From NCBI GenBank assembly GCA_040905445.1, contig JBBDRN010000043.1, positions 479-64,478 of the forward strand: 64,000 nucleotides of DNA, in the 5' to 3' direction. The translations under genes were made by a program, and so were the position numbers. Positions 42,067 to 60,779 of this stretch are shown here, in pieces. Under the pieces are notes generated by a model. It searched no databases and was not told where the DNA came from. It saw only the letters and a program-made list of their open reading frames with translations. Origin of the DNA: Phycisphaeraceae bacterium (GTDB taxonomy: Bacteria; Planctomycetota; Phycisphaerae; Phycisphaerales; Phycisphaeraceae). Every line of letters starts with the position of its first letter. The stretch's first letter is position 1.

Positions 42067-43050
42067 TTACGTCAACGCCTGGCGCAGCACATGCCGCAGG
42101 GCGTCGATGGCCGGGCGATCGGTGCGCGCCAGCGCGTAACGCGCGTGCTGCTGGCGACATCCCGAGGCCAGGGCGGCGAGGTGGCGGCTGATGCCGCGCG
42201 CGTACGCCCCGGCCACCTGGCGGGGGTCCGCGGCGTGGGTCCGCCCGGTCTCCGGGTCGCGCAGGCGGTGGGGCCCGGGCGGCAGGCGGGCGATGTCGAG
42301 CTCCGCCGGGCTGAGCACCTGCAACACGATCACCCCCCCACCACCTCCCCCGCCACCGGCTGGGCGGCCGCGCCCCGGCCCGCCGCGCCGGTGACGTGCG
42401 AACGCGTCGAGGCATGCGGCCGGGTCATCGAGGAGGTCGGAGACGACGGCGAGCACCGTGCCCGCCCGCAGACGGCCGGCCAACTCGCGCAGCGCCCGTG
42501 GCAGGTCGCCCGGGCCGGGTGGGTCGTCGGCCTGCTCGATGGCCCGGCAGAGGCGGTGGGCGTGGGGCCAGCCGGGGCCGGGCGGCAGGTGGTCGACGAG
42601 TCCATCACCCGCCAGCGCCAGCCCCGCTCGATCGCCCTGGCGCGCGGCGATCAGGACGAGGGCGGCCGCGAGCTCGCGGGCGTGGGTGAGTTTCGATTTC
42701 GGATTTCGGATTTCGGATTTCGGATGGGAGCGGGCGGGAGTGGCGGGGGTGGCGGGGGCGGGGTAGGCCATGGAGGCGGAGATGTCGAGCAGGACGAGGA
42801 GGGTGAGGTCCGACTCGCGGCGATGACGGCGGAGGTAGAGGCGGTCGGTGCGGGCGTAGCGCTTCCAGTCGATGCCCGCCGCGTCGTCGCCGGGGCTGTA
42901 GGGGCGGTAGTCATGGAACTCGGCGCCGGGGCCGAGGTGGCGCGAGCGATGCTCGCCGGTGAGCAGGGTGTCGACGAGACGGTGGGCGGTGAGGGTGAGG
43001 CCGGCGAGGCCGTGGAGGCGGGGGAGGATTTCTGATTTCTGATTTCTCAT
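42067..43050 (-). CDS. DUF58 (vWA-like, MoxR-associated family) protein with in-frame repeat insertions
   Basis: GEHRSRHLGPGAEFHDYRPYSPGDDAAGIDWKRYART and LLVLLDISASM motifs. Start (43050 or 43083) lies in or next to a heptamer array. Confidence 0.8.
   Translation of the reverse strand: MRNQKSEILPRLHGLAGLTLTAHRLVDTLLTGEHRSRHLGPGAEFHDYRPYSPGDDAAGIDWKRYARTDRLYLRRHRRESDLTLLVLLDISASMAYPAPATPATPARSHPKSEIRNPKSKLTHARELAAALVLIAARQGDRAGLALAGDGLVDHLPPGPGWPHAHRLCRAIEQADDPPGPGDLPRALRELAGRLRAGTVLAVVSDLLDDPAACLDAFARHRRGGPGRGRPAGGGGGGGGVIVLQVLSPAELDIARLPPGPHRLRDPETGRTHAADPRQVAGAYARGISRHLAALASGCRQQHARYALARTDRPAIDALRHVLRQALT
42691..42723. repeat. ATTTCGG heptamer array (about 4.5 copies) inside DUF58 coding sequence
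   Basis: Encodes [11 protein letters not shown] in frame. Confidence 0.9.
42736..42762. repeat. GGTGGCGGG nonamer array inside DUF58 coding sequence
   Basis: Encodes [10 protein letters not shown] in frame. Confidence 0.85.
43027..43050. repeat. ATTTCTG heptamer array at the DUF58 start codon
   Basis: GATTTCTGATTTCTGATTTCTCAT; the CAT is candidate start Met-12. Confidence 0.85.
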
Positions 43051-53379: not shown

Positions 53380-53439
53380 GGGAGGCTCCGGTGTGTGGGT
53401 TGGCCGGAGTGGCATGCTAGGCGGGAGGCGGGGGGGGGT

Positions 53440-53465
53440 GATTTCGGATTTCGGATTTCGGATTG
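53440..53465. repeat. ATTTCGG heptamer array (about 3.5 copies), intergenic flhG / DUF255 gene
   Basis: Read directly. Confidence 0.9.
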
Positions 53466-53519
53466 GAGAGGCGGCGCGGGTTGGGCGTACGGCGGCACGA
53501 AGCCTGATCCGCTGCGGAC

Positions 53520-54458
53520 CTACGTGGTGCGGCGGAGCCAGGCGGTCATGCGGTTGAGCAGTGAGCCGGTGCGCGGGGCGACGGCGTGACGGTCGATGCG
53601 GTGGGCGAGCCGGTGCATGCAGACGCCGGCGGGGCTGCGCGGCTGCTCGAGGACGAAGAGCTGTCGCTGGCGCACGGCCGCGGGCACCACCGGGTCGTGC
53701 GGGATGTAGCCGGCGAAGCGCGGCGTGAAGCCGAGGAACCGCCGGCAGACGGCGGCGACGCGCTCGTAGACGGAGCGGGCCTCGCGCTCGTCGGCGGCCT
53801 GGTTGACCAGGATGCGCGCGGCGGGCGGGTCCTGGCCGGCCTGGGCACGCTTGCGCGTGAGCGTCTTGATCAGCGCGTAGGCGTCGGTGATGGCGGTCGG
53901 CTCCGGCGTCGTGACGACGATGACTTCGTCGACGGCGACCAGGAAGCCGAGCACGTTGGGCCCGATGCCGGCACCGGTATCGATGATGAGCAGGTCGGCG
54001 GCCTGTTCGAGCAGGTGGAGCTGGTCGAGGAGGCGGTCGCGTTCGCTGTCGTTGAGCGCCGCCATCTGCGCGAGGCCCGACGCGCCGGGGATGAGGTGGA
54101 AGCCGCCGGGCGCGGGCGTGAGGACCTGGTGCAGTGACTTGCGGCCGGCGACGACGTGGGCGAGGTGGCCGGTGGGCGTGATGTTGCACAGGACGTCGGC
54201 ATTGGCGGTGCCGAGGTCGGCGTCGAGGAGAACGACGCGCCGGCCCATGGCGGCGAGCTGGGCGGCGAGGTTGACGCTGAGGGTGGTCTTGCCCACGCCA
54301 CCCTTGCCGCTGGTGATGGCGAGGGTGCGGGCGCCGGCGGGGGTGGATTTCGGATTTCGGATTTCGGATTTCGGAGGGGGCGCGGGGTCGGCGATGGCGG
54401 CGCGGGGTTGCGCCTGCTCGACCATTGCTCGAAGGGCGGTGGCCTGGTCGGTGGTCAT
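53520..54458 (-). CDS. flhG: flagellar number regulator FlhG/FleN (MinD/ParA ATPase)
   Basis: N-terminal DQATALR activator motif. Deviant Walker [13 protein letters not shown]. 4-nt overlap with the flhF stop. Confidence 0.88.
54345..54374. repeat. ATTTCGG heptamer array (about 4 copies) inside flhG coding sequence
   Basis: Encodes [10 protein letters not shown] in frame. Confidence 0.9.
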
Positions 54459-55936
54459 GACTTAAGGACTCCCTCTCCGAGCATCAGGGCGGCGAGGCGG
54501 TCGGCGCGGCCGGGCTCGATCTCGTGTGGTACTTCCTGCCCCGTGGTGACGTAGCTGAGGCGTTTGCGAACCTTGCGCATGACATTGAGCACCACGCCGA
54601 ACGTCACCGCCTCGTCGAGCTTCGTGAAGATGACGCGGTCCGCGGGGATACGGGCGAAGCGCTCGATGGTGTCTTCGAGGACCGACTGGGTGCAGGTCGA
54701 GGAGAGGACGAGGTGGACTTCGTCGGCGTCAGCGGCCTTGATGAAGCGGGCCAGCTCGTCCAGCCGCGGGTCGTCACGCTGCGACCGCCCGGCCGTATCG
54801 ATGAGCACCGCGTCGCAGTCGGCGAACTCCTGCACCGCCCGCTGCATCTCGTCGGGGCTCGTGACGACGCGCAGCGGCACGCCGATGATCCCCGCGTAGG
54901 TGCGGAGCTGGTCCACGGCGGCGATGCGGTAGGTGTCGATGGTGATCAGCGCGACCTTGAGTTGGCGCTTGAGCTTGAAGGTGGCGGCGAGCTTGGCGAT
55001 GGTGGTCGTCTTGCCCACGCCGGTCGGGCCGATCAGCGCGATCGTGCGCGGGCCTCGCTTGACGGCGGGGGTGGCGGCGGCGGCGTCGGACTCCGGATCG
55101 TCGGTGGGCATGAGCTGGGCGACGGCCTTCATGACGGCGCGGCGGCAGGCGTGCGCGTCCTCGAGTTCGCTCTGCTCCAGGCTCTGACGCACGTTGTCGA
55201 CGATTTCGCCCGCGAGTTCCTCGGCGACCTCCTGCTCGAGCAGTGACAGGTATTGATCGAACAGCTTATCAGGCATGTCGGAACGCGCCGCCGTGTCGCC
55301 GGTGGTGCGCTGCCGGCGGTCCTGGCTCATGCGGGCGACCATGCGCTTGATGGCGCGCATCTCGTCGGTGATCTGCCGGGGGTCGAAGAGGGCGGGCGAT
55401 TGTTGGTTGCTGGCTTCTGATTGCTGATTGGGGGCGACCGCGGGGGGGGACTCATTGCCCGGAGCGCTGACGTGCTGCGCCTCGCGGACACGGACGGGGT
55501 GGGGGGTGGGATCCGCGTCCGTCGAGGCCAGGGTCCACGGATTGGCATCCGTGGGCTTTGGCGTACTGACATCAGCGCGCGCGGCGGCGTAGGTGCGGCG
55601 GATGAGGTCGCCGGCGAGCTCGGGCCGTGCAGGTTGCGAGGCGGTTGAAGCCCATGGGTCGGCCTCCATGGGCTTGGCCGGCGACCGGCGCTGCTGGGCG
55701 CGCCGCGCCTCGGCGAGCAGCTCGCGGCGGCGGTCGTCCTGGGTCTTGCGCTGCTTGCGGCCGAGCTCGCGGCCGTCGGCGGCCGTGACCTCGACGTACG
55801 TGCGTGCCCCGACGCCGAGGATCCCGCCATGCTTGTAGCTGCGCGTGTGCAGGATCACGGCGTTGGCGCCGAGCAGGCGACGGACCTCGCCCAGCGCCTC
55901 GTGCATGGTCCTGGCGGTGACGGTCTTCAGGTTCAA
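54455..55936 (-). CDS. flhF: flagellar biosynthesis GTPase FlhF (SRP-type)
   Basis: B-domain N-terminus ([19 protein letters not shown]). G-domain [27 protein letters not shown]. Confidence 0.9.
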
Positions 55937-60734: not shown

Positions 60735-60779
60735 TGATTTCTGATTGCTGATTTGGAATTCGGATTTCGGATTTGGAAC
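60735..60779. repeat. degenerate heptamer array (GATTTCT GATTGCT GATTTGG AATTCGG ATTTCGG ATTTGGA) in the fliQ-fliR spacer
   Basis: Read directly. Confidence 0.85.

Follow-up and report, generated by a model that had tools for sequence, protein, structure and literature searches.

Tandem repeats of seven nucleotides (nt) are over-represented in bacteria, with GGGAATC in Xanthomonas and GGGGAYT in Nostoc as described families (Rehm et al. 2015, PMC4692102). These arrays are mostly intergenic (7–11% are intragenic in Xanthomonas), tend to have about four units and differ in length and sequence among closely related bacteria (PMC4692102). A further heptamer, the TAACTGA direct repeat of Beggiatoaceae, Cyanobacteria and Bacteroidetes, occurs in 2–6 copies, with a minority in open reading frames (ORFs) at the protein periphery, and has been proposed in Beggiatoaceae to provide regulator binding sites upstream of start codons (MacGregor 2015, PMC4679880). 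Here we analysed a 64,000-nt stretch of a Phycisphaeraceae genome (GenBank assembly GCA_040905445.1, contig JBBDRN010000043.1, positions 479–64,478, forward strand; hereafter the window), in which an array of the heptamer ATTTCGG lies within flhG, the gene of the flagellar ATPase FlhG. At a probability of roughly 60%, we read this array as a tolerated heptanucleotide simple sequence repeat (SSR), one of a family of AT-rich 7-base repeats that is specific to the lineage and spread over the genome; the array became fixed in a disordered linker of the protein and is locally mutable. The Phycisphaeraceae can be added to Xanthomonas, cyanobacteria and Beggiatoaceae as a lineage with heptamer microsatellite families. 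Our literature search for heptamer or microsatellite repeats in planctomycetes found nothing relevant, and the term Phycisphaerae gave unrelated papers only.

Heptanucleotide tracts are also known from contingency loci, such as the (AAGACTC)n tract of neuO in Escherichia coli K1. In Haemophilus influenzae, they occur in the hmw1A and hmw2A promoters and, as (AACAACC)n, in the HI1369 homologue, with about 8–38 units (PMC2651432). The flhG array resembles these loci in having a unit of 7 nt within or close to the 5′ coding region, where only every third copy number is in frame, and in having a natural out-of-frame allele; it differs from them in that the described loci are surface or host-interaction genes of host-adapted bacteria with proven switching, whereas here four units lie in the gene of a cytoplasmic regulator of an environmental bacterium. 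In Campylobacter, motility varies in phase through homopolymer tracts in flhA, flgR and flgS; to our knowledge, FlhG has not been reported as a phase-variation target in that genus. The repeat-driven phase variation of Campylobacter has been surveyed at the level of the phasome (PMC6321876). Both cases join a frameshift-prone simple repeat to a flagellar regulatory or export gene, but the Campylobacter tracts are poly-G/C or poly-A/T, unlike the flhG heptamer, and their switching has been measured. Finally, Rickettsia palindromic elements (RPEs) and intragenic repetitive extragenic palindromic (REP) sequences are palindromic mini-elements found in frame within genes. The heptamer arrays, too, are short DNA repeats tolerated in frame by permissive loops of housekeeping proteins; however, RPEs and REPs are conserved, discrete elements that form hairpins, whereas the arrays have no common flank and the flhG array forms no hairpin.

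A heptanucleotide array is translated within flhG

The flhG array consists of four tandem, mismatch-free ATTTCGG units at 54347–54374 of the plus strand. Tandem Repeats Finder (TRF) delimited it at 54345–54375, with a period of 7, 4.4 copies and 100% matches, and it reads (CCGAAAT)x4.4 on the coding (minus) strand; head-to-tail 7-nt units, typically in 2–6 copies, characterise the bacterial heptanucleotide SSR class. The window as a whole contains 13 matches to ATTTCGG against 3.95 expected, and 13 or more were reached in none of 100 shuffles. The array is read on the minus strand, where codons 29–38 of FlhG correspond exactly to 54345–54374, and the unit is free of stop codons in every frame of both strands. 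Because the flhG ATG overlaps the stop codon of the preceding gene flhF (ATGA) and the DQAxxLR start of the protein is kept in all 33 orthologues inspected, the array is translated and not part of a spacer: it lies inside translated flhG.

The initial annotation, made from the letters without database searches, had described this four-copy array and its in-frame translation between the DQAxxLR helix and the Walker A motif, and both descriptions hold. It had also named two further copies of the array. The one placed near 53440–53465 is real, with three units at 53441–53461 (TRF 53440–53464), and forms an intergenic (GATTTCG)x3.6 array on the plus strand, found by TRF and by pattern count between the flhG stop codon and the next gene. 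The one at 60735–60779 consists of several related heptamers in degenerate form, with ATTTCGG itself making up only about 2.3 units. Another perfect four-unit ATTTCGG array, at 42696–42723, was absent from that description. This array was not classed as coding by the codon-usage frame test described below, and within 42691–42758 it adjoins a nonamer array of GGCGGGGGT at 42733–42758.

The gene itself (53520–54458, minus strand; 312 aa) encodes a MinD/ParA-type ATPase of the FlhG/FleN/YlxH group, identified by Pfam (AAA_31, CbiA and ParA), by PDB matches (FleN 5j1j, E 3.6e-55; Geobacillus FlhG 4rz2, E 6e-47) and by an AlphaFold model. It stands in the order flhA-flhF-flhG, with FHIPEP (FlhA) upstream of flhF, the gene of the signal recognition particle (SRP)-type GTPase (54455–55936, minus strand; Pfam SRP54, E 1.5e-43). 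FlhG sets flagellar number and placement, and its DQAxxLR motif is the activator of the FlhF GTPase, a role that the present protein would have by analogy. Here the motif reads DQATALR (residues 4–10; 54429–54449, minus strand), and D4, Q5, A6, L9 and R10 are nearly invariant among 44 homologues, as residues S50 to K57 of the deviant Walker A motif SGKGGVGKT are strictly (residues 50–58; 54285–54311, minus strand). The identification of the protein as FlhG in the initial annotation is borne out by these motifs, by the structure matches and by the gene order.

In the AlphaFold model, built from the 44 homologues with a mean predicted local distance difference test (pLDDT) score of 85.4, a helix spans residues 5–16, residues 17–43 are coil, and the first strand of the ATPase domain follows at residues 44–50. 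The coil is a predicted disordered linker (54330–54410, minus strand) from the activator helix to the first ATPase strand; residues 21–40 have a mean pLDDT of 47–51, the homologue alignment shows no alignable conservation in the linker, and the PDB alignments start at query residue 37–44, that is, past the array residues. The array is thus predicted to encode ten residues of a disordered tether, and the location between the DQAxxLR helix and Walker A that had been assigned to it agrees with the model. The array region gave no Rfam match at E ≤ 1 and no RNA structure (folding was no better than in shuffles, z = +0.55), and an RNA element was rejected on these grounds.

The gene order breaks right after flhG: a thioredoxin-domain gene follows here (window 53380–53520), and a GFO/IDH/MocA oxidoreductase lies downstream of flhG instead on contig L104 of the sister species (positions 1684–2130).

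Linker length in FlhG homologues

The initial annotation had further taken the array for an insertion in the linker, a claim that fails on the orthologue alignment. DQA and GKGG lie 29 to 85 residues apart in 43 homologues (median 42). In the present protein they are separated by 47 residues, compared with 49 both in the sister species and in P0004 and P0006, the two closest relatives that lack the array (65% and 62% identity to FlhG sequence P0001). Since the linker length equals that of the nearest outgroups, a net insertion is ruled out. In P0004 and P0006, the residues aligned with those encoded by the array are of low complexity and unrelated to them; the array is lineage-specific and takes the place of linker sequence with no net gain in length. 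A different peptide repeat, TERPA TERPT TERLA, occupies the linker of the homologue P0010 (63% identical); FlhG linkers of other lineages therefore also pick up repeats.

Array alleles in a sister species

Five flhG sequences of the sister species, the members of a 90% protein cluster, were aligned at the DNA level. The alignment contained three in-frame array haplotypes of identical length: an AAATCCG type in L002; CAATCAG AGATCAG CAGTCAG CAATCAG CAATCC in L103; and CAATGAG CAATCGA AGATCGG CAATCAG CAATCC in both L104 and L105. L002 and L104 differ at 12 of the 34 array bases and at 7 further positions within 25 nt, as against 3 of the 852 positions elsewhere in flhG, a clustering with a binomial p of ~1e-15 even at three times the background rate. 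The array patch is the most variable part of flhG. A diversity-generating retroelement was dropped as a candidate, the substitutions between haplotypes being, by eye, not adenine-specific.

The array thus changed from the AAATCCG to the CAATCAG type at constant length within one species: all four full-length in-frame alleles encode exactly 317 aa, with arrays that are 26–35% different. The unit that enters the flhG alleles is the unit of an array in flhF, about 900 nt upstream. In the window, the FlhF array is a translated, degenerate AGCAATC-type array in the variable region of the protein (55398–55430, minus strand; TRF period 7, 4.7 copies, 73% matches), and its counterpart in the sister species is a perfect (AGCAATC)x4. 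The flhG alleles are also recombination mosaics: L104 and L105 are identical over 319 alignment columns and then differ at 31 sites. A short recombination patch therefore explains the array differences as well as local hypermutation does.

The fifth sequence, L102, is a 1,067-nt MEGAHIT contig (ENA ERZ27301261) that diverges from L002 by 2.4% and carries an extra unit, AAATGCG, before an L002-like array. From the start codon to the array, no indel compensates for the extra unit, and the frame of its MTDQAHALRE start is out of register after the array. The assembler used a k of 141, far more than the 41 nt of the array, and an artefact of repeat collapse is therefore unlikely. The gene call on this contig is a 289-aa product that begins at an ATG made inside the extra unit. 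At nt 155–160, AAATGCG in place of AAATCCG creates this ATG in frame with the ATPase domain, so that an activator-less FlhG could still be made. This natural +7-nt allele bears out the earlier statement that a change by one unit would frameshift flhG. Both length and sequence therefore vary at the array, with one +7 allele and three haplotypes among the five sister-species sequences.

Distribution among relatives

Three tandem units, (ATTTCGG)x3, were found in 22 of 121 Phycisphaeraceae genomes, spread over 16 of 70 genera and holding as many as about 90 matches each, whereas the reversed-sequence control had no match in any of the 121. The distribution is patchy even within a genus: genomes of genus g8 have 0, 91 and 0 matches. 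A heptamer array in the FlhG linker was found in none of 31 other Phycisphaerales FlhG sequences (13 from (ATTTCGG)n-rich genomes and 18 from further relatives), and recurrent colonisation of this linker was rejected on this basis. The congeneric sister species (genome G001), whose FlhG is 82% identical, has a translated array at the same place, reading AAATCCG AAATCCG AAATTCG AAATCCG AAATCC. As it is common to two species whose FlhG proteins are only 82% identical, the array is old and not recent; we infer from the sequences a single colonisation in the ancestor of the genus, after which the array would have been kept.

Within the source species, a second metagenome-assembled genome (MAG), GCA_040879345.1, is identical over 6,939 nt including three arrays and perhaps comes from the same population. 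The FlhG of this species forms a singleton protein cluster, present on two contigs. A search with FlhF returned no further members of the genus, and searches of Joint Genome Institute (JGI) metagenome contigs with the conserved flank and with array-plus-flank patterns returned no further flhG alleles.

A genome-wide family of AT-rich heptamers

The source genome is a MAG of 3.27 Mb in 49 contigs with 69.4% GC, and the flhG array is one of many in it. We counted 138 perfect tandem heptamers with AT-rich units, 33 of them with at least 3 copies; AT-rich repeats of at least 3 copies numbered 0, 4, 0, 0 and 0 at periods 5, 6, 8, 9 and 10. The AAATCCG family (equivalent to ATTTCGG) accounts for 32 of the 138 arrays, with lengths of 14–32 nt and loci dispersed far in excess of chance, and other AT-rich units include AATGCAC, AATTCAG, AAAATTC, AAATCAG and AATCAGC. 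Heptamer arrays have 2 to 5.9 copies genome-wide. Their length distribution has a shoulder at 29–33 nt and drops above about 33 nt, but is broad overall, which rules out a sharp 33-nt module.

The arrays are strongly depleted in genes. We tested for coding frame by codon usage, with 857 long ORFs as the training set and a sensitivity of only about 68%. By this test, 7 of the 66 arrays that reach 18 nt (11%) were classed as lying in frame in coding sequence, as against 2987 of 5000 random positions (60%); under-representation in coding sequence is a property of the heptamer SSR class. A classifier using GC at third codon positions (GC3) was dropped, since it missed the flhG array itself. On the ATTTCGG strand, the flanks of 25 arrays contain 47–48% G, and beyond this G-richness these arrays share no flank sequence, which rules out a mobile element with defined ends. 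An in-frame mobile mini-element of the RPE or REP kind is likewise not indicated, the arrays having no conserved ends and the folding score given above (z = +0.55) lending no support to a palindrome. Relative to flanking genes, array orientation shows only a mild bias (32 to 17), which rules out a strong orientation with transcription.

This family resembles the Xanthomonas and Nostoc heptamers in being dispersed over many loci, in lying mostly between genes (about 11% are in genes here), in its preference for about four units and in its variability between relatives; the high GC content of the MAG is a further likeness to Xanthomonas. The Xanthomonas and Nostoc units, however, are G-rich and G-quadruplex-capable, whereas ATTTCGG, which has only GG, is not, and here several AT-rich unit types coexist. 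With the TAACTGA repeats it shares direct repetition of a heptamer at more than 100 loci, a patchy phylogeny and a minority of copies in ORFs, mostly outside domains. It differs from them in that TAACTGA stops all three frames on one strand and lies mostly just upstream of start codons, whereas ATTTCGG is stop-free and has no such placement.

Arrays inside other genes

In-frame arrays in the MAG lie in MutS, PriA (twice), a class I/II aminotransferase, alanine racemase and a small cysteine-rich protein as well as in FlhG. The two priA arrays (G000 C41:24760-24782 and C41:25153-25180) lie between helicase motifs I and Ia and encode the peptides TSEIRNPKF and ANQKSEIRNQQP; both arrays are absent from the sister species. 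In PriA of another genus, g10 (locus L122 of genome G010), the same loop is filled with heptamer arrays of the GGGTATC and CGAAACC types. In mutS, (AAATCCG)x4.4 lies in frame at G000 C41:23291-23321; a slip by one unit there would yield a mutator. Tolerant loops have thus been colonised repeatedly by heptamer arrays. The presence of arrays in housekeeping genes and the repeated colonisation of the PriA loop weigh against a role peculiar to FlhG. That such elements colonise tolerant linkers was one of two explanations put forward in the initial annotation, and it fares best of its interpretations, being well supported by the arrays in MutS, PriA, the aminotransferase, alanine racemase and FlhF and by the PriA loop of the second genus.

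Discussion

If the flhG array is a tolerated SSR, the following course of events would account for it. A heptamer array would have become fixed, in frame, in the length-tolerant FlhG linker of the genus ancestor. It would survive there because the unit is stop-free on both strands, as it could in any coding region that takes extra hydrophilic residues without harm, and because the linker need only tether the activator helix to the ATPase, and the encoded PKSEIRN peptide would be a passenger without a role of its own, presumably neutral. The tract would then be a local hotspot of mutation and recombination at which units are gained, lost and exchanged, with slippage as the probable mechanism of unit change. 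A change by one or two units would shift the frame after about codon 38, which would uncouple the activator helix and leave a null or N-terminally truncated FlhG. In other polar flagellates, flhG/fleN mutants have too many or misplaced flagella and swim more poorly, and by that precedent an off-frame flhG allele may likewise produce too many or misplaced flagella. Selection would keep the in-frame alleles common.

Several observations weigh against this account. Plain slippage among in-frame alleles is expected to change the protein by 7 residues, and no such change was seen in the four alleles, all constant at 317 aa. The constant-length swap of units is better matched by short-patch recombination or ectopic conversion than by simple slippage. 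The +7 allele is known from a single 1,067-nt MEGAHIT contig. The SSR account also leaves unexplained why the period is 7 and why these units are used, and the most curious point, likewise unexplained, is that the unit arriving in flhG by a constant-length swap is of the flhF type.

The array could instead be a selected contingency locus, in which reversible gain and loss of units switches FlhG and generates subpopulations that differ in flagellar number or placement. We regard this as unlikely, although several features point towards it. The unit is not a multiple of three and lies near the 5′ end, at codons 29–38 of 312, where a frameshift removes nearly the whole protein; the tract was kept through speciation and is still perfect here; a natural off-frame allele with one more unit exists and has an ATG in frame with the ATPase domain; and the adjacent flhF has a second array. 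In some species, moreover, an excess of SSRs close to N-termini has been interpreted as tuning for phase variation (PMC3315296). Against such a locus, the tract has four units compared with about 8–38 in the heptanucleotide switches of H. influenzae hmw and the HI1369 homologue (PMC2651432), and the tract length needed for hypermutability may differ in this organism. The same arrays lie in mutS, priA, the aminotransferase and alanine racemase genes, in which an off state would be harmful. The FlhG linker has an array in none of the 13 other (ATTTCGG)n-rich genomes, and the two MAGs of the species do not differ over 6.9 kb, a stretch with three arrays. The dedicated phase-variation switch for flagellar number that the initial annotation had considered is left without support by the four-unit tract, the arrays in housekeeping genes and the identity of the two MAGs.

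Another explanation, which we hold to be similarly doubtful, is active writing or conversion, in which a process that works in a 7-nt register, independently of the unit, overwrites about 30–35 nt at tolerant sites or swaps arrays at constant length. Template switching between nearby arrays and a repair pathway are candidates for such a process, which would act on the FlhG and FlhF linkers among other sites. It would account for the change of unit type without a change in length (19 differences in a patch of about 60 nt against 3 in the other 852 nt), for the identity of the incoming unit with that of the flhF array about 900 nt upstream, for the drop in array length above about 33 nt, for the restriction of AT-rich repeats to period 7 and for the patchiness of ATTTCGG among genera, including the 0, 91 and 0 matches within one genus. 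The mosaic of L104 and L105 speaks against it: because the alleles are recombination mosaics, ordinary homologous recombination of an old linker allele could give the same picture. The length distribution of arrays is broad, with no sharp module, and no candidate enzyme turned up, none having been looked for. We give only a low probability to the proposal that the flhF and flhG linkers are hit by rewriting in a 7-nt register at constant length, perhaps by template switching, with frameshifted flhG alleles as a by-product and a standing fraction of cells with altered flagellar number.

A functional DNA or RNA element, with the repeats as regulator binding sites and the flhG copy acting on the flhF-flhG mRNA or DNA, is very improbable: the strong enrichment of arrays outside genes, the 47–48% G in the flanks on the ATTTCGG strand and the similar proposal for the TAACTGA family of Beggiatoaceae (PMC4679880) favour it, but the orientation bias is mild (32 to 17), RNA structure and Rfam matches are absent, other genera have no array in their FlhG genes, and the unit found at the flhG site changes freely from one close strain to another, contrary to what is expected of a sequence-specific site.

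With the tolerated SSR as the preferred reading, the locus shows that heptamer families enter housekeeping proteins at disordered loops and that the variability of a tract of this kind can exceed that of the remaining gene about 100-fold. Where flhG, mutS or priA is annotated as frameshifted or split in these MAGs, the cause may be a real repeat-length allele and not an assembly error. Were the arrays actively swapped at constant length, this would bear on why 7-nt repeats are over-represented in bacteria, and rewriting in a 7-nt register would mean contingency-like behaviour outside host-adapted pathogens, by an undescribed repeat-writing mechanism. For the organism, an uncultured sediment planctomycete, a frameshift-prone tract right behind the FlhF-activating helix would be a simple route to heterogeneity in motility.

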